Shown here piece by piece: positions 9,517 through 29,682 of a stretch of 41,040 nt of DNA; position 1 is the stretch's first letter; every line of letters starts with the position of its first letter. Origin of the DNA: Escherichia phage HeidiAbel_Bas97; the sequence record PQ850606.1; one strand, 5' to 3'. The position numbers and the translations under genes are program-made. The notes under the pieces are model-generated. The model saw only the letters and a program-made list of their open reading frames with translations, was not told where the DNA came from and searched no databases.

Positions 9517-9855
9517 ATGAAAGGTACAAACGCGGCTACAGGCGCGCCGCTGGATGGCATGGACCATCTGCGCCAATCCATAAGAGACATACTCACGACG
9601 CCAATTGGCACGCGGGTGATGCGCCGCGACTACGGCAGCCGCCTGCCCTACCTGGTTGACGCGCCGATGAACCGCAGCACGCTGTTGGACCTGTACGCAG
9701 CGACGGCGGAAGCGTTGGAAACCTGGGAACCACGCATCAGCGTGCAGCAGGTGACAGCCACCGCAGCCGAACCAGGGCGCGTGGAATTGTCGATTTCTGG
9801 CGAATACCTGCCAGACGGCAAACCGATAACTATTGATGGCATAGTGGTGACCTAA
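9517..9855 (+). CDS. W: Baseplate protein W (GPW/gp25 family)
   Basis: 112 aa with the gpW/gp25 signature (MDHLRQSIRDILTTPIGTRVMRRDYGSRLPYLVD). Confidence 0.85.
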   Translation: MKGTNAATGAPLDGMDHLRQSIRDILTTPIGTRVMRRDYGSRLPYLVDAPMNRSTLLDLYAATAEALETWEPRISVQQVTATAAEPGRVELSISGEYLPDGKPITIDGIVVT

Positions 9856-16421: not shown

Positions 16422-18779
16422 ATGGCAAATAAGAAACTAAACGCAACAATTACCATCGGCGGTGCCGTATCGAGTAGCCTTAAGGGCGCATTCGGCACCG
16501 TCAAATCATCTGTGGAACAGGTTGGCGCAGCAATGGCCAAACTGGAACGCGAGCAACGCACACTAACCAACGCCATCCAGACGTTTGGCCGCCAGGGCAA
16601 AAACGTTGATTCACTGCGCGCCAAATACGCCGCCAACGTTGCTGCGGTGGACAAACTGCGCACCGCCACCGAACGCCTGAAACGCGTGGAGGATGCCCGC
16701 GAACGCAACCTGGCGAAGCGTGAACAATACAAAGATGGCATCATGGGCACCATTGCCCTGGGTGCCACTATCGCCGCGCCAATCAAAGCCGCGATGGATT
16801 TTGAAAGCACCGTTGCCGACATCAAAAAGGTGGTGGACGCGCCGAAGGGTGCCGACGAAGATACTTTCTTCAAAGCCATCAGCAAACAGGTTTTGGATAT
16901 GTCCAAAACTCTGCCGATGACCGCCAACGAGATTGGCCGCATCTTCGCGCTTGGCGGCCAGTCTGGCATTGCCACCGAAGATTTGGGCAAGTTCACGGAA
17001 TCCGCAGTCAAAATGGGCGTGGCGTTTGATGTCAGCGCGGAACAGGCTGGCCAGTCAATGGCGGAACTGCGTTCTGCATTCGGCATGACGCAAGACCAGG
17101 TGAACACCCTGGCCGACCAGATGAACTACCTGGACAACAACGGCAGCGCCGCCGCCAAAGACATCATGGAAATTGTCCAGCGCATCGGGCCGCTGGCCAA
17201 AGTGGCTGGCGTTTCTGCTGGCCAGGTGGCCGCCCTGGGTTCAACGCTGCGCGGCATGGGTGTGCAAAACGAAATTGCCGCCACCGGCATCAAAAACCTG
17301 TTCCTGACCCTGGCATCCGGTGACGCTGCGACGAAGAAACAAAAGGAAGTGTTTAAACAGCTTGGCTACACGTCAAAAGAAGTGTCCAAGTCAATGCAGC
17401 TTGACGCAGAAAAGACCATGACGGTCATTCTGAAACAGATTTCCAAACTGCCGAAGCACGCACAGGCGGCAGCACTTACGGAACTGTTTGGCAAAGAGGT
17501 GGTGGGCAGTATCGCGCCGCTGATGACGCGGCTTGGCGAGTTGCAGAAAAACTTTGATGCCGTGGCCGACCGGACGAAATACGCCGGTTCCATGCAGAAA
17601 GAATTTGAAGCGCGCGCGGCCACCACTGCAAACCAGCTTATTTTGTTCCGCAACCAGATCACCGGCCTGGGCGTCACGATTGGTTCAGTCCTTCTGCCTG
17701 CGGTCAACAGCGTCCTGCAAACCGTTGGGCCGTGGATTGGCAAAATCACTGAACTGGCTGACGCGCACCCGGTTGTCACCAAAGCCATTGTGGCCACGGC
17801 TGGCGCACTGATTACCATGCGCATTGCCACGTTTGCTGCTGGCTTCGCTTTCACGTACCTGCGCGGCGGTGCGCTGCGTGTTGTGGGTGCCCTGGCTGGT
17901 GCCCGCGCACAGATGGCACTGACGGCGGTTTCCGCGCGTGCAGTGGGTGCCGCAGCTACCGTGGCCAACGGCGGCCTGGTGGGCATGGCATCGCGTGGAA
18001 TCCCTGCCGTTGTCACTGGCGTGCGCGCCATTGGTGCGGCGTTCATTTCCACCGGCATTGGTGCCCTGATTACCGGCCTGGCGCTTGGCGGCCTGTGGAT
18101 TTACCGCAATTGGGCTGGCGTCAAAGCGTTCATGACCGGCACGTTGCAGGGCATCCAGCAAGGGTTGCAGCCTGTAACGGAGAAATTCCAGGCGCTGTGG
18201 GATAGGTTAGGACCAGTAAAAACCGCATTCCAGTGGGTTGCTGACGCTGCTGGCAAGGCGTGGGATTGGTTCACCAAACTGGCCGAACCTGTGAGCTACA
18301 GCGGCGAAGAACTGAAAAAGGCCGGTGACGCTGGCCAGCAGTTCGGCAAGGCGCTGGCGGCAGGCATTGATTATGTTTTGGGGCCAATTCAGTTCCTGAT
18401 TGATAAGATCATTTGGGTTTCTGACAACATTGGCGCACTGACGCAAAAAGCCGTTGAGTTCAAAAACAGCGTTTCTGACATGGCTGGTGGTGCCTGGCAG
18501 AAAACGAAAGACTTTTTCAGCAACCCGTTTGGCAGTGATGACGTGCCAGAAGGCAACACGCTGGCCACACCGTTGACACCGAACAACGCATTGCCAGCGC
18601 CTGCCCTGGCGAACCGTGGCGGCAGTACATACACCGACAGCAGCACCACCACCATTCAGGTGACGCAGCGCCCTGGTGAGAACAACGCCGACCTGGCCAA
18701 ACGTATTGCCGACGAACAGGAGCGCCGCCGCCAGGTGCGCCAGCGCAGCATGATGAATGATGGAGTGACGGCACCATGA
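16422..18779 (+). CDS. T: Tail tape measure protein
   Basis: 785 aa, Ala/Gly-rich with coiled-coil and hydrophobic segments; follows E/E'. Confidence 0.9.
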   Translation: MANKKLNATITIGGAVSSSLKGAFGTVKSSVEQVGAAMAKLEREQRTLTNAIQTFGRQGKNVDSLRAKYAANVAAVDKLRTATERLKRVEDARERNLAKREQYKDGIMGTIALGATIAAPIKAAMDFESTVADIKKVVDAPKGADEDTFFKAISKQVLDMSKTLPMTANEIGRIFALGGQSGIATEDLGKFTESAVKMGVAFDVSAEQAGQSMAELRSAFGMTQDQVNTLADQMNYLDNNGSAAAKDIMEIVQRIGPLAKVAGVSAGQVAALGSTLRGMGVQNEIAATGIKNLFLTLASGDAATKKQKEVFKQLGYTSKEVSKSMQLDAEKTMTVILKQISKLPKHAQAAALTELFGKEVVGSIAPLMTRLGELQKNFDAVADRTKYAGSMQKEFEARAATTANQLILFRNQITGLGVTIGSVLLPAVNSVLQTVGPWIGKITELADAHPVVTKAIVATAGALITMRIATFAAGFAFTYLRGGALRVVGALAGARAQMALTAVSARAVGAAATVANGGLVGMASRGIPAVVTGVRAIGAAFISTGIGALITGLALGGLWIYRNWAGVKAFMTGTLQGIQQGLQPVTEKFQALWDRLGPVKTAFQWVADAAGKAWDWFTKLAEPVSYSGEELKKAGDAGQQFGKALAAGIDYVLGPIQFLIDKIIWVSDNIGALTQKAVEFKNSVSDMAGGAWQKTKDFFSNPFGSDDVPEGNTLATPLTPNNALPAPALANRGGSTYTDSSTTTIQVTQRPGENNADLAKRIADEQERRRQVRQRSMMNDGVTAP

Positions 18780-19186: not shown

Positions 19187-19395
19187 TGCAAACTTACATT
19201 ACCAAAGACGGTGACACGGCGGATTACATCGCCTGGAAATACTACGGCAACCAGGACGCGGGCACCGTGGAAGCACTGGTGGACGCCAACAAAGGGCTGG
19301 CAGACCGTGGCCCTGTGCTGCCTGCTGGCCTGGTCATCAACCTGCCGGAAATCACGACACCAGCGACCACGCAGGGGGTGAAATTGTGGGATTAA
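19186..19395 (+). CDS. X: Tail protein X (LysM-like)
   Basis: 69 aa resembling P2 gpX (TKDGDTADYIAWKYYG...LWD). Confidence 0.8.
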   Translation: MQTYITKDGDTADYIAWKYYGNQDAGTVEALVDANKGLADRGPVLPAGLVINLPEITTPATTQGVKLWD

Positions 19396-20492
19396 CAGGA
19401 ATTGCGCCAGCGTTTCGCGTGCTGGCCAACGGCGGTGACATCACCGCCAAAATCAATGAACGCCTGATAAGTCTTAGCCTGTCCGATGGCGTGGGGCTGG
19501 AATCTGACACGCTGGAAATTAGCCTGGCGGATGATGAACCGGCTAACCCAATCCAGATGCCGGAAACCGGCGCAGAACTGGAACTGTTCCTGGGTTATGA
19601 CAACTGGACACAGCGCATGGGCCTGTTCATCTGTGACGAAGTTGAACTGGCTGGCTGGCCAGGCACCATGACCATCAGGGCGCGTGCTGCCACCTATGAC
19701 AAGTCAAAGGGCGGCAAAACCGACCTGCAAACGCAGAAATCACGTAGCTGGACCAAAGGCACGAAGTTTGGCGACATGGTGAAGAAGATAGCCAGCGAAC
19801 ACGGCATGGAATCCGCCGTGTCAGAAAGCATGGCCAAAATCACCCTGCCCCATACTGACCAGGCGGATGAATCTGACCTGAACCTGTTGCTGCGCCTGGC
19901 CAAGAAATATGACGGCGTAGTGAAGCCATCAGGCGGCAAAATCACGGTCACGAAGCGTGGCGAAGGCAAGACGGCCAGCGGTGAAGAACTGCCAACCATC
20001 ACGCTGACGGCGCAGGATTGCACCGCATTCAGGCTGACCAGCCAGAAGCGCGAAAACGCAGGCACGGTGGTAGCTTACTACCAGATGACGAAGAAGGCCG
20101 CGCGCAACGAAGTGAAGGTGGGCGAAGGTGAGCCGGTCAAACGGATTGGCAAATACTACCCAACGCAGGCAATGGCCCTGGACGCTGCAAAAGCAGAACT
20201 GGCCAAGCGCCAGCGCAACCAGGTGACCGTTGCCGTGACGCTGCCGGGTGACCCATCCATTGCCGCAGAATGCAAACTGGTGCTGGTTGGGTTCCGTGAT
20301 GGCATTGATGGGGAATGGCTGATTACCCGCGCAGATCACCGGCTGGATGACAACGGTTATTCGTGCGACGTGGAAGCAACAAAGCCGAACAGCGAAGAAG
20401 AACCGAAGGTGGAAGTTATCGAGCGCAAGAAGCCGCAAGAAAGCGACCCGCCTGACGATGATGGACCTGGGCACGTCATTGAAGAAAAATAG
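19386..20492 (+). CDS. D: Late control / tail protein D
   Basis: 368 aa, GTG start overlapping X; last gene of the P2-like tail operon. Confidence 0.85.
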   Translation: MGLTGIAPAFRVLANGGDITAKINERLISLSLSDGVGLESDTLEISLADDEPANPIQMPETGAELELFLGYDNWTQRMGLFICDEVELAGWPGTMTIRARAATYDKSKGGKTDLQTQKSRSWTKGTKFGDMVKKIASEHGMESAVSESMAKITLPHTDQADESDLNLLLRLAKKYDGVVKPSGGKITVTKRGEGKTASGEELPTITLTAQDCTAFRLTSQKRENAGTVVAYYQMTKKAARNEVKVGEGEPVKRIGKYYPTQAMALDAAKAELAKRQRNQVTVAVTLPGDPSIAAECKLVLVGFRDGIDGEWLITRADHRLDDNGYSCDVEATKPNSEEEPKVEVIERKKPQESDPPDDDGPGHVIEEK

Positions 20493-21368: not shown

Positions 21369-22244
21369 ATGGCTACTATTGGACAACTCTATAAAGCAGG
21401 TGCCACCGAAGCAAAGCCGCGCAAGGTGTTTTTCGTTCCGCTGGCGGAACTGTATGTGGAAGATGGCTACAACATCCGCGACGTGGACCAGGCGCACGTT
21501 GAAGAATTCCGCGATGCGTACCTGGCCGGTGAATATGTGCCGCCGCTGACCGTGGAAGTGACGCAGCAGGGCATCAAGGTGATTGACGGCCACCACCGCT
21601 TTGCCGGTGCCAAGATGGCCGCAGAAACCGGCCTGGAACTGCGCCTGGAAGTGAACGACATCACCGGCACCAGTGAGGCTGACAAAATCGCGCTGATGGT
21701 TACCAGTAGCCAGGGCAAGCCGCTGGAACCGCTGGAACGCGCCAAAGCCTATGCGCGCCTGAAAGCGCAGGGATGGACCAATGACGAGATAGCCAGGAAG
21801 GTGAAGCGCAGCCCGTCAGACGTGGCAAACATGCTGGCCCTGGCTGAATGCCCGGAACCAATCAAAGACATGGTGCGCGGCGGCCAGATGTCCTACGTGA
21901 CCGCCACCGAACTGACCCGCCAGCACGGCACCGAAGCCGAAGCCGTGGCCGCACAGGCGCTGGAAGAAGCCAAAGCCGCCGGAAAGGATAAAGTAACGAA
22001 GAAATTCACCGAACCGAAGGCACCGAAAGCGCCGAAGGCCAAGCCGGAAGCCATCCAGCCACCGTTCGGCAAAGACAAGCTGACGCGCCTGGCTGACCTG
22101 GCTGTGCAAATCGAACTGGTCCACAGCGATGACAGGCTGGAAGATGCCGAGCCTGACGAATCCATGACCCTGCGCGCACCTGCTGGCGTAGTGCGTGAAT
22201 TCATGGCGCTGGTGGCTGACTACGTGGGCGGGGTGCCGGAATGA
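21369..22244 (+). CDS. ParB/Srx-like N-terminal domain protein with central HTH (IDGHHR motif)
   Basis: VIDGHHRFAGAKMA matches the ParB/sulfiredoxin arginine-finger box; HTH-like WTNDEIARKVKRSPSDVANMLAL; Lys/Pro/Ala-rich linker; acidic C-terminus. Confidence 0.7.
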   Translation: MATIGQLYKAGATEAKPRKVFFVPLAELYVEDGYNIRDVDQAHVEEFRDAYLAGEYVPPLTVEVTQQGIKVIDGHHRFAGAKMAAETGLELRLEVNDITGTSEADKIALMVTSSQGKPLEPLERAKAYARLKAQGWTNDEIARKVKRSPSDVANMLALAECPEPIKDMVRGGQMSYVTATELTRQHGTEAEAVAAQALEEAKAAGKDKVTKKFTEPKAPKAPKAKPEAIQPPFGKDKLTRLADLAVQIELVHSDDRLEDAEPDESMTLRAPAGVVREFMALVADYVGGVPE

Positions 22245-22561
22245 AAGGCGAACTGAAAGCCGGTGGCCTGGCGCTGGTTTACGGGTTGCGCGTCAGACCG
22301 GAAGGGAACGGCAAGTGCGTGCGCCTGATTGAGCTTGCCAGTTACCGGCAATCAGAGTTGCTGGCTATGGCGCTAGGTGAACCAGTCGAACGCTGGTGGC
22401 GGGTTTATGGCCTGCTACCTGGTAATGAAGTTGCGCAGGTACGGGCGCAAAACCTGCTGCCAATCGACGGAGACGATCAGTTTCTGGACAGCGCAACAGG
22501 CGAAGGGCTGAACAGACTTGCTGAACAATTTGGATTCAAACCAGCCGAACTGACGGCGTAA
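22241..22561 (+). CDS. Hypothetical protein, cargo operon
   Basis: ATGA translational coupling to the ParB-like gene; 106 aa. Confidence 0.5.
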   Translation: MKGELKAGGLALVYGLRVRPEGNGKCVRLIELASYRQSELLAMALGEPVERWWRVYGLLPGNEVAQVRAQNLLPIDGDDQFLDSATGEGLNRLAEQFGFKPAELTA

Positions 22562-22570
22562 GGGGTAAGC

Positions 22571-22783
22571 GTGAAACTGACCAAAGCAACAGATAACGGC
22601 TTCAACCTGTGGGTGGTTGAGCATAAGGCACCAGGTGGCGGCATCATCAGAAACATGGTGCAGGTTTCCAGCCAGGATTTTCAGCAGGGCGGCCAGGAAG
22701 TGCGTGACGCGGTGGCGCTTAAATTGCTTGAGGCGCGAACACGATGCAGGGCGCTGGCCATGATACTGCCGCCCATCCAGTAA
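22571..22783 (+). CDS. Hypothetical small protein (GTG start), cargo operon
   Basis: 70-aa ORF followed by a strong terminator hairpin; start uncertain. Confidence 0.3.
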   Translation: MKLTKATDNGFNLWVVEHKAPGGGIIRNMVQVSSQDFQQGGQEVRDAVALKLLEARTRCRALAMILPPIQ

Positions 22784-22789
22784 CCAACA

Positions 22790-22812
22790 GCCCGCCACCT
22801 GGCGGGCTTTCT
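22790..22812. terminator. Rho-independent terminator between the cargo operon and the tRNA 3' end
   Basis: GCCCGCC-ACCT-GGCGGGC stem-loop followed by TTTCTGTT. Confidence 0.6.
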
Positions 22813-22818
22813 GTTGGG

Positions 22819-22895
22819 TGGCGACCCCTACAGGAATCGAACCTGTAACCTACAGCTTAGAAGGCTGTCGCTCTATCCGGTTGAGCTAAGGGGCC
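22819..22895 (-). tRNA. tRNA-Arg (anticodon UCU), 77 nt with encoded CCA
   Basis: Reverse complement folds by hand into a full cloverleaf: 7-bp acceptor stem with one G-U pair, D arm, anticodon loop CUUCUAA, T-loop TTCGATT, discriminator G and CCA. Confidence 0.85.
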
Positions 22896-22939
22896 GTGTA
22901 ATTATGTGGCGTTATTCGCGGTTAAGGTTTTGCACTACC

Positions 22940-22963
22940 ATACCCTAAACCATACCCTAAACC
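22940..22963 (+). repeat. Tandem direct repeat ATACCCTAAACC x2 (putative integrase arm-type sites)
   Basis: Exact 12-bp unit repeated in tandem between the tRNA and int; a related pair lies at 23164-23187. Confidence 0.45.
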
Positions 22964-23163
22964 GTTTTGCCTATCGGCTAAGTGCTTGTAATTCCTCGCT
23001 TATTAACACTGTTGCATTCCGCTTAGAAGGCGGTTACAGTGGCATAATCGCAAGTCATCACAAATCACGCGAACAGCCACTAAGCCACTGCGTTTAAACA
23101 TCATTCTGCATCATCCCCGGCTAAGTGTTTGCGTTCAGATCCTGTTTTGACTTGTGCCGAACC

Positions 23164-23187
23164 GTACCCTAAACCGTACCCAAAAAG
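23164..23187 (+). repeat. Direct repeat GTACCCTAAACC / GTACCCAAAAAG (putative arm-type sites)
   Basis: Same TACCCTAAACC core as 22940-22963, 13 bp upstream of the int start. Confidence 0.4.
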
Positions 23188-23199
23188 GGGGCATAAGCC

Positions 23200-24411
23200 A
23201 TGCTGACAGAACGCCAGATACAGGCGGCCATGCGCGCCGTGACCAGTGAAACAGTGTTGAACGATGGGGCCGCAGGACGTGGCAGCGGAAGCCTGCGCCT
23301 GCGCATCCGTGCCGGGGCCAAAGGGCCGAACGCTACCTGGCAGGCCGTCTGGTGGAACGCCGGAAAACAGACCAGCAAGGCGCTTGGCCGCTACCCGGAT
23401 TTGAGCCTGGCCGACGCGCGCCGGAAGTATGAAACCGAAGTGCGCGACGTGCTGACGGCTGGCCGCGACCCAAACGCAGTGGTTGCAATGGCCGAAAGCC
23501 CGACCATTGAAAAACTGTTCCAGGCTTACATCCAGTACCTGCGCGACAAAGAGACGGCGACCACCCACACATCAGAACATCTGCTGCTGACCGGCAAATA
23601 CAACGCCGCTGATTTGCTTGGCCGCAACACCATTGCGTCAACCATCGAACCTGCCGACATCGCCAACGTGCTGGCCAAAGGCGTGAAGCGTGGCGCACGC
23701 CGAACCACCGACATGCAGCGCACCGCCATGATGGCCGCATTTAATTGGGCGATGAAATCGACACACGATTACACGCAGGAAAACCGCATGGATTGGGGGC
23801 TGAAATATAACCCTGTTGCAGCCGTTCCGCGCGACCAGGCAGCCAACCGCACGCTGGATAGGAACCTGTCAGCGGAGGAAATGAAGCACGTATGGGATAA
23901 CGCGCCGGAACAAAGCGGCGACGTGATGCGCCTGGTGATGTGCACCGGCCAGCGCGTCATTGAAGTCATGCGCATAGCTGGTGCTGACGTGGACCTGAAA
24001 GCCAGGCTGTGGACGATGCCAGCCAGGAAAACAAAGGGCCGCAAGCATACCCACATGGTGCCGCTGACCACGCAGGCGGTTGACATCCTGACCACGCTGA
24101 TTGACCTGTACGGTGACGGTTACCTGTTCCCTGCCCGCGCTGGCGCTAAGGGTGACATTATCGGAATCCCAAGCGTCAGCCGTGGTGCCAGCCGCATGGC
24201 AGGCATTAAGCCGTTCACCCCGCGCGACCTGCGCCGCACCTGGAAGTCACGCGCCGGTGACGCTGGCATTGACAGGTTCACGCGTGACCTTATCCAGCAG
24301 CACGCGCAGACTGACACCGGCAGCAAACATTATGACCGGTTTGACTACCTGCCGCAGATGCGCGAGGCGATGAATAAATGGGAAATATGGTTGCGAAATG
24401 CTATAGCGTGA
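23200..24411 (+). CDS. int: Tyrosine-type site-specific integrase (P4-like, with N-terminal arm-binding domain)
   Basis: 403 aa; N-terminus matches the P4-type integrase arm-binding pattern (LTERQIQAA...LNDGAAGRGSGSLRLRIRAGAKGPNATWQAVWW...LGRYPDLSLADARRK); C-terminal catalytic region with R, H..H and Y; adjacent to a tRNA. Confidence 0.85.
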   Translation: MLTERQIQAAMRAVTSETVLNDGAAGRGSGSLRLRIRAGAKGPNATWQAVWWNAGKQTSKALGRYPDLSLADARRKYETEVRDVLTAGRDPNAVVAMAESPTIEKLFQAYIQYLRDKETATTHTSEHLLLTGKYNAADLLGRNTIASTIEPADIANVLAKGVKRGARRTTDMQRTAMMAAFNWAMKSTHDYTQENRMDWGLKYNPVAAVPRDQAANRTLDRNLSAEEMKHVWDNAPEQSGDVMRLVMCTGQRVIEVMRIAGADVDLKARLWTMPARKTKGRKHTHMVPLTTQAVDILTTLIDLYGDGYLFPARAGAKGDIIGIPSVSRGASRMAGIKPFTPRDLRRTWKSRAGDAGIDRFTRDLIQQHAQTDTGSKHYDRFDYLPQMREAMNKWEIWLRNAIA

Positions 24412-24634
24412 TGTAGAGTTATTTTAAGCAGACGGTGGAGGCGCTCCACGCCGGAGACGTAACCGGCACGCACCGTGATGCGCTTTTGCGAACACTTCCA
24501 ACCCCCAGGGTGTTACCTCGCAACGTGAAAGCGCATCGCAGTGCGACATTCGCACAGACTGGAACTTACCCGACAAGTGATTCCAATAAGGCAGGTGATC
24601 TGTATCTCGCATCACAGCGTCACGTGACACAAAA

Positions 24635-24655
24635 CCCCGCTTAGGCGGGGTTTTT
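24635..24655. terminator. Bidirectional rho-independent terminator between int and the convergent leftward operon
   Basis: AAAA-CCCCGC-TTAG-GCGGGG-TTTTTCTTT. Confidence 0.6.
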
Positions 24656-24661
24656 CTTTGG

Positions 24662-25345
24662 TCATTCGTCGCTGCTTTCGTCATCGCCTTCCGGCGTCAT
24701 CGCGCCATGTTCCGGGCAGTGAGGCGGCCCGACTTCCAGCCATTTTTGCGTGACCCGAACCGTGTAGCCACATTCCTGGCATTCACACTTTTTCAGCCTG
24801 GTGGTTTGCTTAGGCTTCGCTGTGGACGCGCCGCCGACCGGTGCAACTTCGATTTCTTCCCCTTCCCCATCGTCACCGCCTTCATCCAGGCCAATGCGCA
24901 GGCGTGGCACCTTTATGGACATGCCACGGTCAAACGTCAGCTTGGCGTGTGGCATCGGGCCAAGTTCGTCCAGGAACGGTTTGACGTACTCTTTGAATTT
25001 CTCGCCAGGCGTGGTGGCGGTCATCGGTCCATTCAGGCCAACAGCCTTGCACACCGTGGCAAACGCACCCTTATGGCCGCAGTCAAAACCAACGGTGGCG
25101 TGCGTCAGTTCGTGCCACAGGTGGTTTGCTACCAGGTACGGTTCCACCTGGTCTGGCATGATGAAAATTTCAAACGTGTTGTCTGAACTGCACTTGCTGT
25201 GCCAGCACTGTGCCGCCGTACTGGAACGCGCGCCGCTGCTGCAAAAGCCAACCGACACGCGGAATTTAGGCATTTCGTAGCCGAATTCTTTAAAGCGCGG
25301 CGCAAACTTCGCCGCCAAAGCATTTAACCAACCTTCACGGTCCAT
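24662..25345 (-). CDS. SprT-like zinc metallopeptidase domain protein with C-terminal zinc ribbon
   Basis: HExxH motif (WHELTHA) in the N-terminal domain; acidic Gly-rich linker; C-terminal CxxC...CPEH zinc-ribbon-like motif. Confidence 0.5.
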   Translation of the reverse strand: MDREGWLNALAAKFAPRFKEFGYEMPKFRVSVGFCSSGARSSTAAQCWHSKCSSDNTFEIFIMPDQVEPYLVANHLWHELTHATVGFDCGHKGAFATVCKAVGLNGPMTATTPGEKFKEYVKPFLDELGPMPHAKLTFDRGMSIKVPRLRIGLDEGGDDGEGEEIEVAPVGGASTAKPKQTTRLKKCECQECGYTVRVTQKWLEVGPPHCPEHGAMTPEGDDESSDE

Positions 25346-29113: not shown

Positions 29114-29143
29114 AGTATAATTAAGTAATATCGTTGCTGTCAA
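29114..29143 (-). promoter_or_regulatory. Putative sigma70 promoter for the leftward recombination operon (TTGACA, 18-nt spacer, TATACT on the minus strand)
   Basis: Near-consensus hexamers about 50 nt upstream of the exonuclease ATG, overlapping the repressor gene stop. Confidence 0.4.
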
Positions 29144-29682
29144 ATCTTTCTGTTCAGTCCAATTACTTTGCCGATTACTTCCAGATCGTCATCTGTGCAG
29201 ACTTCATCAAATTTATACAGTTCGTTGTCACAAAGGACGCGCACATTGCCATCAATCCTGCGCTGACACCTTACCATCCTGGCTTCGCCATTCATTGCAA
29301 TGGCGTATATCCCGGCGTTGTCTATCCACGAAATTGACTTGTCGATGACACAGCTATCACCATTCAACAATGTGGGTTCCATCGAGTCAGTCACGACCTT
29401 TACAACGGCCAGGCTTTCCGCTGGCAGGCCGTAAAAAGCCGACATTGTTGACATCACGCCGTCATTGAAAAAAAGCGCGTTTGCAGTGACTGCGGTTGCG
29501 CTCAGTAATTCTTCTTTACGGCAACCAATAGCGTCAGCCAGCCTGTCGAGAATGGGCAGCGTTACGCGCTGCGGTTCACGTTCCCACCGGCTGACCGTCA
29601 CGGCGGTGGTTCCGAGCTTTTCAGCCACGTCCTGCAACGTCATTCCTGCCGCCTGGCGGCGCTCCCTTATGCGGTTTGGCAT
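29140..29682 (-). CDS. CI-like repressor (HTH-XRE plus S24 LexA-like peptidase domain)
   Basis: N-terminal HTH (MTLQDVAEKLGTTAVTVSRWE); C-terminal S24-like domain with Ser in DSMEPT and a downstream Lys; divergent from the rightward operon. Confidence 0.8.
   Translation of the reverse strand: MPNRIRERRQAAGMTLQDVAEKLGTTAVTVSRWEREPQRVTLPILDRLADAIGCRKEELLSATAVTANALFFNDGVMSTMSAFYGLPAESLAVVKVVTDSMEPTLLNGDSCVIDKSISWIDNAGIYAIAMNGEARMVRCQRRIDGNVRVLCDNELYKFDEVCTDDDLEVIGKVIGLNRKI

Follow-up and report, generated by a model that had tools for sequence, protein, structure and literature searches.

Escherichia phage HeidiAbel_Bas97 (sequence record PQ850606.1) carries a complete tRNA-Arg(UCU) gene from whose 5′ side a tyrosine integrase gene (int) diverges. 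This locus raises the question of why a phage would keep a whole tRNA here, when the attachment sites of most related integrases hold only the 3′ part of one. The window, by which we mean the whole 41,040-nucleotide stretch analyzed, is the genome of a Jilinvirus-like myovirus, and its closest deposited relative over positions 22000-25000 is Salmonella phage PT1 (90% identity). An earlier note, made from the letters of this DNA alone, had proposed an attachment-like region between the tRNA and int. We suggest a consequence that goes beyond that proposal, namely that integration destroys a tRNA gene of the host and that the phage tRNA replaces it. Specifically, positions 22819-24411 appear to constitute a module of phage attachment site (attP), int and tRNA that serves tRNA-dependent lysogeny and targets tRNA-Arg(UCU), a reading to which we assign a probability of roughly 0.72.

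The DNA between the tRNA and int has the anatomy of an attachment site (Table 1). Arm-type repeats had been marked in the earlier note at 22940-22963 and 23164-23187, and a repeat search of the whole 41-kb window bears them out: TACCCTAAACC has three exact copies, every one in the attP region, and the two 34-nt blocks that hold the repeat pairs are 79% identical to each other. The same search confirms a second copy of an 11-mer from the tRNA anticodon loop. This sequence, GCTTAGAAGGC, occurs at 22855-22865 within the tRNA and at 23021-23031, with no further exact copies; if one mismatch at most is tolerated, 0.45 copies per window would be expected by chance. The copy outside the tRNA is part of a hairpin that reads CCGC-TTAGAAG-GCGG on the strand opposite to that of the tRNA, and that combines the anticodon loop of tRNA-Arg(UCU) with a stem unlike the ACAGC/GCTGT anticodon stem of the phage tRNA. 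We refer to this mimic of an anticodon arm as the pseudo-arm and propose that it is the core of an attP spanning about 250 bp, from 22940 to 23187.

ARAGORN detects no tRNA at the core. It calls the tRNA-Arg(tct) at 22819-22895 as the sole tRNA in the window and thereby upholds the full 77-nt minus-strand gene of the earlier note. The 32 nt to the left of the core show no likeness to a tRNA 3′ part (p > 0.6). The idea that this DNA is a decayed tRNA 3′ half was rejected, as global alignment to three tRNA 3′ parts did no better than alignment to shuffled sequences; a 26-nt similarity rests on the 11-mer GCTTAGAAGGC. Three CTAAG-type motifs accompany the core and are putative sites for integration host factor (IHF). 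The sequence CTAAGTG[C/T]TTG has exact copies in the window only at 22978 and 23121; neither of these, nor CTAAGCCACTG at 23080, was listed in the earlier note. Relatives with a standard attP have TAAGTCATTGATT as the corresponding motif, which is complementary to the IHF consensus WATCAANNNNTTR.

Homologues of the integrase are numerous. To place these elements among those of related integrases, we read the 400 nt upstream of int at 80 IMG/VR loci, five loci from GTDB genomes and several metagenome and SRA contigs. A recurrent layout was found, in which a repeat pair with a 12-nt period (-290 to -247 from int) is followed by a CTAAG-type motif, an anticodon arm (-182 to -198) and a further repeat pair (-54 to -23). 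The left repeats of relatives read GTGCACCC, GGGCACCC or GTACACCC. All cores in the 16 elements examined lie at -182 to -198, and most of them have the flanking repeat pairs and a CTAAG-type motif 40-50 nt to the left. The pseudo-arm of the window, 182 nt before the int start, sits at this family core position, with the entire tRNA beyond the left repeat pair. Because their positions are kept across relatives, the repeats, core and motifs are not chance occurrences. This positional homology, together with the integrated relative described below, supports the earlier proposal that arm sites flank a core related to the anticodon loop. The divergent placement of int upstream of the tRNA 5′ end was also read correctly in the earlier note, but it is the norm for this integrase family and not, as had been thought, unusual.

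The majority of the family follows a standard design, in which a tRNA 3′ part that reaches from the CCA end as far as the anticodon arm is interposed between motif and core position. These parts come from tRNA-Arg(UCU) in the loci L106 (integrase 59% identical to that of the window) and L065, from tRNA-Gly(UCC) in Burkholderia phage Mica (L024) and about 15 others, and from tRNA-Lys(UUU) in L061-L074; the anticodon arm of L065 equals the window core over CCGCTTAGAAGGCGGT (16 nt). The order and spacing of the standard attP, as seen in Mica, L106 and L065, are those of the window. In these three, however, the tRNA 3′ part adjoins the core and there is no complete tRNA, whereas the window has unrelated DNA about 10 nt shorter at this place and a whole tRNA outside the P arm. 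The view that this phage carries an entire tRNA rather than a 3′ part is therefore supported, and the classical tRNA-restoring feature, an attP that carries the tRNA from the crossover to its 3′ end, is absent from the window.

The combination of an own tRNA and a short core recurs in every relative whose integrase is at least 56% identical: PT1, Alux-21, Pseudomonas phage PPpW-3, the loci L016-L022, L107 and L111, and the Escherichia coli contig L109. In each of these the stem of the core is unlike the stem of the element's own tRNA. When five genomes with the same or a nearly identical integrase were aligned, the pseudo-arm and the ~170 bp up to int proved almost invariant, and the tRNAs differed, one of them having the stem ACTGA/TCAGT. 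A more distant element, L054 (IMGVR_UViG_3300046507_000289; integrase 49% identical), has, within the 420 nt upstream of int, a complete tRNA-Lys(UUU) inside its P arm beside a tRNA-less pseudo-arm of the Lys type, AACTGTTTAAAAGTCAGTT. Its design suggests that the pairing of an own tRNA with a short core has had an independent origin.

Where an element of this layout recombines can be read from an integrated relative. Integrase P0103, which is 55% identical to that of the window, is encoded, along with AlpA and a PriCT primase, on a P4-like island of 9.6 kb that lies in 80-kb bacterial contigs (L005-L008) and is present in at least four metagenome samples. In L005, the 5′ half of a host tRNA-Arg(UCU) is found at 19444-19484 and the 3′ part beside int at 9780-9831, and the only sequence that the halves share is GCTTAGAAGGCTGTTG, a 16-bp common core. 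No tRNA is detected by ARAGORN at either junction, and joining the flanks in silico yields a perfect 77-nt tRNA-Arg(tct). The island also carries a complete tRNA-Arg(tct) of its own (19235-19310) with a different anticodon stem, CCGC/GCGG, which follows the severed 5′ half at a distance of 133 bp on its downstream side and points in the same direction. The attP reconstructed from these junctions has the order of the window (own tRNA, ~130 bp spacer, core, ~170 bp, int), and CTAAGTGCTTG is found at a start-to-start offset of 43 nt from GCTTAGAAGG, as it is in the window. The junctions, which split the host tRNA-Arg(UCU) at its anticodon arm, indicate that L005 recombined at the pseudo-arm and not at its own tRNA, and that the host gene was destroyed and the element tRNA put in its place. 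Other integrated relatives (L011, L012 and L013) lie at the anticodon arms of tRNA-Arg(UCU) in Microvirga alba, tRNA-Lys(UUU) and tRNA-Arg(ACG).

Is the module of the window still maintained? The integrase matches Arm-DNA-bind_3 (PF13356; 38.6 bits, E = 1.2e-9, above cutoff), Phage_integrase (PF00589; E = 2.1e-10), PHROG 1 integrase and, weakly, PF22022. No family-invariant residue is missing; R252, K277/K279, R345, H368 and Y378 are among them. Box II (residues 342-346) reads RDLRR, not HxLRR, and is invariant family-wide, also in the integrase of the integrated island. Measured against diverged relatives, int has a ratio of nonsynonymous to synonymous divergence (dN/dS) of 0.19-0.24 at dS 0.5-0.6, and the non-coding P′ arm is 87-96% identical in the same relatives. 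The 15-nt core is identical in six of seven close relatives, though their tRNAs differ. Because dN/dS is about 0.2 and both the P′ arm and the core are better kept than synonymous sites, int and the attP DNA upstream of it are under purifying selection.

Purifying selection extends to the tRNA. In an alignment of nine distinct tRNA-Arg genes from related phages and elements, the cloverleaf pairs are 100% kept, and compensatory changes are seen at eight pairs, including all five pairs of the anticodon stem. This stem (alignment columns 28-32 with 40-44) takes seven different forms among the nine sequences, unlike the acceptor, D and T stems, which are nearly fixed. The acceptor stem GGCCCC.../...GGGGTCGCCA is common to the tRNAs of all elements and differs from that of E. 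coli argU. AGA makes up 2.0 per 1000 phage codons and 3.1% of the Arg codons. Since its use is low, the phage would have no special translational demand for tRNA-Arg(UCU), and a translational role was set aside as unsupported by codon usage. Purifying selection on int and attP, taken together with the low use of AGA, argues against a dead relic.

Relatives without a working int carry deletion scars at the same sequences. The announcement of Enterobacter phage Arya states that a tRNA-Arg adjoins the integrase or its pseudogene (PMC5754474). We find that the Arya int (L112 1613-1690) is a pseudogene that arose from a 1.15-kb deletion joining the equivalents of window positions 23031 and 24183. 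The left end falls directly after the core GCTTAGAAGGC, and the sequence resumes within the 3′ part of int. Both the P′ arm and the greater part of int are missing, and the tRNA was kept. In the int-less 'lytic' E. coli Jilinviruses ep3 (L113 1520-1590), ECO1230-10 (L115) and ECOO78 (L116), a tRNA remnant is instead fused to the last ~70 nt of int (window ~22855-22859 joined to ~24335-24344). The remnant breaks off inside or at the border of the anticodon loop of the own tRNA (...GCTTA), and because it is joined to the end of int, tRNA and int must have been lost in one deletion.

These are two independent deletions, each of which starts at one of the two TTAGAAG loops, at the core in Arya and in the own tRNA in the ep3 type. 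Their positions suggest that the integrase acts at TTAGAAG loops and that the scars stem from aberrant integrase-mediated recombination, although this is reasoning after the fact and a deletion by way of microhomology is possible. A tentative extension, which we consider doubtful, is that the integrase also acts on the phage's own anticodon-arm sequences and that such self-recombination gave rise to obligately virulent Jilinviruses. If this were true, the rapid turnover of anticodon stems would reflect selection that prevents the integrase from acting on the replacement tRNA of its own phage. In the same case, a short core would free the module from the 3′ half of a host tRNA and ease its moves between Pseudomonas, enterobacteria and alphaproteobacteria.

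Table 1. Features of the proposed attP-int-tRNA module and its surroundings, in window coordinates.
Feature	Position	Strand	Basis or remark
tRNA-Arg(UCU), complete, 77 nt including CCA	22819-22895	-	ARAGORN; proposed replacement for host gene cut by integration
P-arm pair, arm-type sites, 2 x ATACCCTAAACC, tandem, 12-nt period	22940-22963	+	repeats, family position
IHF-like accessory site (putative), CTAAGTGCTTG, ~40 nt left of core	22978-22988	+	exact-copy search, relatives
Proposed attP core, anticodon-arm mimic without tRNA, CCGC-CTTCTAA-GCGG on tRNA strand	23019-23033	-	repeats, position in relatives
7-nt loop within core, proposed overlap region	23023-23029		
Second IHF-like motif, P′ arm, CTAAGCCACTG	23080-23090	+	kept at -120 to -123 in relatives
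Third IHF-like motif, P′ arm, CTAAGTGTTTG	23121-23131	+	exact-copy search, relatives
P′-arm pair, GTACCCTAAACC then degenerate GTACCCAAAAAG (fourth copy)	23164-23187	+	ends 12 nt before int start codon
Tyrosine integrase, 403 aa, P4-like N-terminal arm-binding domain	23200-24411	+	Pfam, PHROG, alignment
Core-like sequence in int, TGCCAGCCGCATGGCAGGC, right-hand parent of Arya deletion	24186-24204	+	14/19 match to Arya core region
GC-rich terminator-like hairpin	22789-22808		just past tRNA 3′ end, follows upstream + strand open reading frame; terminator scan, inverted repeat; kept in relatives
ParB-like helix-turn-helix protein (PF17762)	21369-22244	+	just upstream of tRNA module
CI-like repressor, HTH_3 + Peptidase_S24	29140-29682	-	Pfam, PHROGs; intact; rest of lysogeny module

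How would such a module work? We propose that the N-terminal domain of the integrase binds the four arm-type sites and that the enzyme engages the core, which copies the anticodon stem-loop of tRNA-Arg(UCU) and nothing more of it, with IHF-like bends at the three CTAAG-type motifs helping the complex to form. The two halves of the symmetric core stem could be the core-type sites, and the 7-nt loop between them the overlap. The host tRNA-Arg(UCU) would then undergo strand exchange in or next to the loop CTTCTAA, and a common core of about 9-16 bp would be expected. Because attP has no tRNA 3′ half beside the core, the host gene would be cut in two and not rebuilt. The phage tRNA, next to the P arm and in the orientation of the target, would come to lie downstream of the severed 5′ half of the host gene, at a distance of ~130 bp, and would decode AGA in place of the host tRNA. 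We infer that this phage uses its site as L005 does; the host tRNA targeted, the role of IHF, the positions of cleavage and the need of a lysogen for the phage tRNA are likewise predictions.

The junctions expected for argU can be written out. On the tRNA strand, the host 5′ half with the P arm would read 5'-GGATAGAGCAACGAC-CTTCTAA-GCGGAATGCAACAGTGTT-3', and the P′ arm with the host 3′ part would read 5'-ATGCCACTGTAACCGC-CTTCTAA-GTCGTGGGCCGCAGG-3'. The corresponding signatures would be TTGCA[T/A]TCCGCTTAGAAG running to a tRNA D-arm and a tRNA T-arm running to TTAGAAGGCGGTTA[C/A]AGTGG.

Several observations weigh against tRNA-dependent lysogeny of this phage. Clear plaques and no lysogens are reported for the Jilinvirus isolates, HeidiAbel among them, and the BASEL study calls their lifestyle enigmatic, since int and cI are intact and lysogeny was never observed (PMC11990801). 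In the databases searched there is no integrated copy of the phage or of any relative with an integrase more than 60% identical. This holds for 5,426 complete E. coli genomes (megablast), for GTDB species representatives (protein-pattern scans), for IMG/VR (DNA patterns specific for attP and for the attR junction, the latter of which matched only unrelated phage tRNA genes) and for JGI metagenomes (DNA pattern). The 83 closest integrase clusters (71-100% identical) lie on contigs of at most ~44 kb, and all that were inspected are in attP configuration. An exact-protein look-up of six integrase clusters gave the same picture: every phage-type contig is in attP configuration and only the island is integrated. 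The integrase of the integrated comparator L005 is only 55% identical to that of the window. The contig AATBGZ010000031.1 of E. coli USECESBL382 (L109; 42,429 nt), which the BASEL paper cites for this phage group as an E. coli prophage, is 97% identical to the window across attP, with int in mid-contig. It is in attP form and was rejected as evidence of integration; it could represent episomal carriage, a carrier state or contamination. Also on this side of the balance, a sigma-70 consensus scan of 22500-23400 found no promoter-like site and predicted none for the tRNA, and no recombination directionality factor was recognized, the small open reading frames near int having no Pfam or PHROG match.

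The match to the obvious host target is a further point of this kind. The gene argU (dnaY) is the sole, essential tRNA-Arg(UCU) gene of E. coli K-12, and the core shares only nine contiguous bp (C-CTTCTAA-G) with it, the anticodon stem of argU being ACGAC/GTCGT against ACCGC/GCGGA at the core. Either the integrase tolerates this mismatch or the natural lysogenic host is another organism. Some E. coli strains hold extra, prophage-borne copies of tRNA-Arg(UCU), which could provide an alternative target or complement a disrupted argU. In E. coli DY612 (L105 2915-3074), for example, a lambdoid prophage has a tRNA-Ile and a tRNA-Arg(UCU) downstream of Q, and this tRNA-Arg shares with the window core the full 11-mer GCCTTCTAAGC, compared with the nine bp of argU. 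Lysogeny by this phage is unproven, because no integrated copy of a close relative was found and the core matches argU over nine bp only, and our confidence is lower for the known hosts than for the architecture and its mechanism.

Some of these observations would also fit a module that originated as proposed but now lies unused and is being lost from phages that are functionally virulent in E. coli and Salmonella. The clear plaques of HeidiAbel, the lack of lysogens and relatives in which temperate behaviour was never observed (PMC11990801) point in this direction, as do the repeated losses of the module in Arya, ep3, ECO1230-10 and ECOO78, the absence of integrated copies from the collections searched and the mismatch between core stems and argU. 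We nevertheless regard a relic as unlikely, given the dN/dS of about 0.2 for int at dS 0.5-0.6, an attP far better kept than synonymous sites, an invariant core, tRNA pairing held perfect by compensatory change, an intact CI-like repressor and more than 80 integrase clusters of full length. We give little credence to a tRNA retained for lytic growth, whether for the supply of rare AGA or for the evasion of tRNA-Arg anticodon nucleases, that came to lie beside attP by coincidence. It is true that tRNA-Arg(UCU) occurs in many phages, including unrelated AT-rich phages and lambdoid prophages, that Arya keeps its tRNA without a functional integrase and that the anticodon stem is hypervariable. Yet AGA is rare among the phage codons, and in every own-tRNA element examined the tRNA accompanies the integrase and a core of the same isotype, in constant place and orientation. 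Moreover, within the same integrase family L054 pairs an own tRNA-Lys(UUU) with a Lys-type pseudo-arm, and the ep3 lineage lost tRNA and int together.

Two further accounts concern the use of the site itself. In the announcement of phage Mano, the intact tRNA next to int was guessed to be the attachment site (PMC7849712), and by extension the complete tRNA at 22819-22895 would be a classical core, integration would leave two intact tRNA copies and the 11-mer at 23021 would be incidental. The end of the ep3-type deletion inside the tRNA anticodon loop agrees with this guess, but the tRNA lies outside both arm-repeat pairs and 348 nt from int, and the family core is always at about -185. The crossover of L005 maps to the pseudo-arm and not to its own tRNA, close relatives have an identical pseudo-arm and tRNAs that are 79% identical with other stems, and identity between the tRNA and E. 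coli argU is no more than 78%, all of which makes a classical attP very improbable. Scarcely credible, finally, is that int and attP serve not for chromosomal integration but for multimer resolution or genome cyclization of a ParB-encoding episomal prophage. The ParB-like gene, the separate 42-kb contig in attP form in the assembly of an E. coli isolate and the fact that the phage was never seen integrated would suit such an episome. It would leave unexplained the copy of a tRNA-Arg(UCU) anticodon arm and the attached tRNA of the same isotype; in addition, related integrases belong to elements that have inserted into tRNA genes, and Pfam and PHROG scans of the window detected no ParA partner. 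Integration at the anticodon arm with replacement of the host tRNA is the reading that we retain.

Other features of the region concern its expression and surroundings. A consensus sigma-70 promoter for the tRNA was considered and dropped when the scan found none, and the idea of promoter capture is speculation. Immediately before the P′ arm repeats there is a TTGACT (23147-23152), and a TTTGAC motif is kept at this place family-wide. It may be the -35 element of an int promoter overlapped by the arm sites, in which case int would be autoregulated; no promoter was called here by the consensus scan. Farther away, parts of the tape-measure gene (16665-18616) are 80-90% identical to prophage tape-measure genes in 26 complete E. 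coli genomes; nothing else in the first 25 kb has a match among the complete E. coli genomes.

If the proposal is true, the window would offer a clear Gram-negative case of tRNA-dependent lysogeny and would bear on the question, raised by the authors who demonstrated it in actinobacteriophages in 2024, of how common this strategy is elsewhere. It would also have practical weight, as members of Jilinvirus and the Iiscvirinae have been proposed for therapy as 'lytic' phages. For the safety of therapeutic phages, the deletion scars indicate which relatives have lost the module irreversibly. The proposal names a testable target, the anticodon loop of argU or of another tRNA-Arg(UCU), with predicted junction sequences, and the stem mismatch between core and argU is a possible reason why no lysogens arise on laboratory hosts. 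The attP-int-tRNA cassette could, furthermore, become an integration vector that carries its own selection.

How does this module compare with known systems? Williams reportedly defined, in 2002, an anticodon-loop class of tRNA integration sites. As is proposed for the window, the identity between attP and the bacterial attachment site (attB) has its boundary at the anticodon stem-loop in that class; there, however, the identity runs on to the tRNA 3′ end and the gene is restored, which would not be so for the window. The satellite phage P4 resembles the window in having PF13356 and PF00589 in its integrase, repeated arm sites around the core and a tRNA target, but leuX, at whose 3′ end P4 recombines, is restored in the process, whereas the family of the window integrase recombines at the anticodon arm.

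The closest parallel is tRNA-dependent lysogeny as described for the mycobacteriophages Fionnbharth (subcluster K4) and those of cluster L (Guerrero-Bustamante and Hatfull, mBio 2024; PMC10865867). There the strategy was proven genetically: the common core is ~10 bp, the host tRNA is not rebuilt, and lysogens are viable only with a phage tRNA of the same isotype. How widespread it is beyond actinobacteriophages is, according to the authors, unknown (PMC10865867). At the level of sequence, the window module shows the features expected of such a system. Like Fionnbharth, it has a tyrosine integrase with an arm-binding domain, pairs of arm sites that flank the core and a core that is short, with a common core of 10 bp in the mycobacteriophages and 16 bp in L005. 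The attB of Fionnbharth is a host tRNA gene, and the window core copies the anticodon arm of tRNA-Arg(UCU). Each also has a close relative with a similar integrase and a standard long core, Boilgate for Fionnbharth and L106 for the window. Unlike Fionnbharth, the window belongs to a P2-tailed myovirus of the Iiscvirinae with hosts among the Proteobacteria, its integrase is of the P4-like Arm-DNA-bind_3 type, its proposed target is tRNA-Arg(UCU) and its core is a symmetric copy of a whole anticodon arm. The phage tRNA of the window directly adjoins the P arm and points in the direction of the proposed target; that of Fionnbharth is located elsewhere, in overlap with gene 37, and has a promoter of its own. 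Fionnbharth is backed by genetics, and the window module is known from its sequence.

Splitting and replacement of a host tRNA have also been described outside the Actinobacteria. An inactivated tRNA gene replaced by an element-borne one was found bioinformatically in phage-related sequences of Sinorhizobium meliloti (PMC11476347), and the Lactobacillus johnsonii prophage Lj965 is a bioinformatic split-and-replace case as cited in PMC10865867. Both involve other elements, integrases and tRNAs, with no link to Jilinvirus. Since tRNA-dependent lysogeny has been demonstrated so far only in mycobacterial phages, the window module would present a new case of a recently described kind, in a new phage group and a new phylum.

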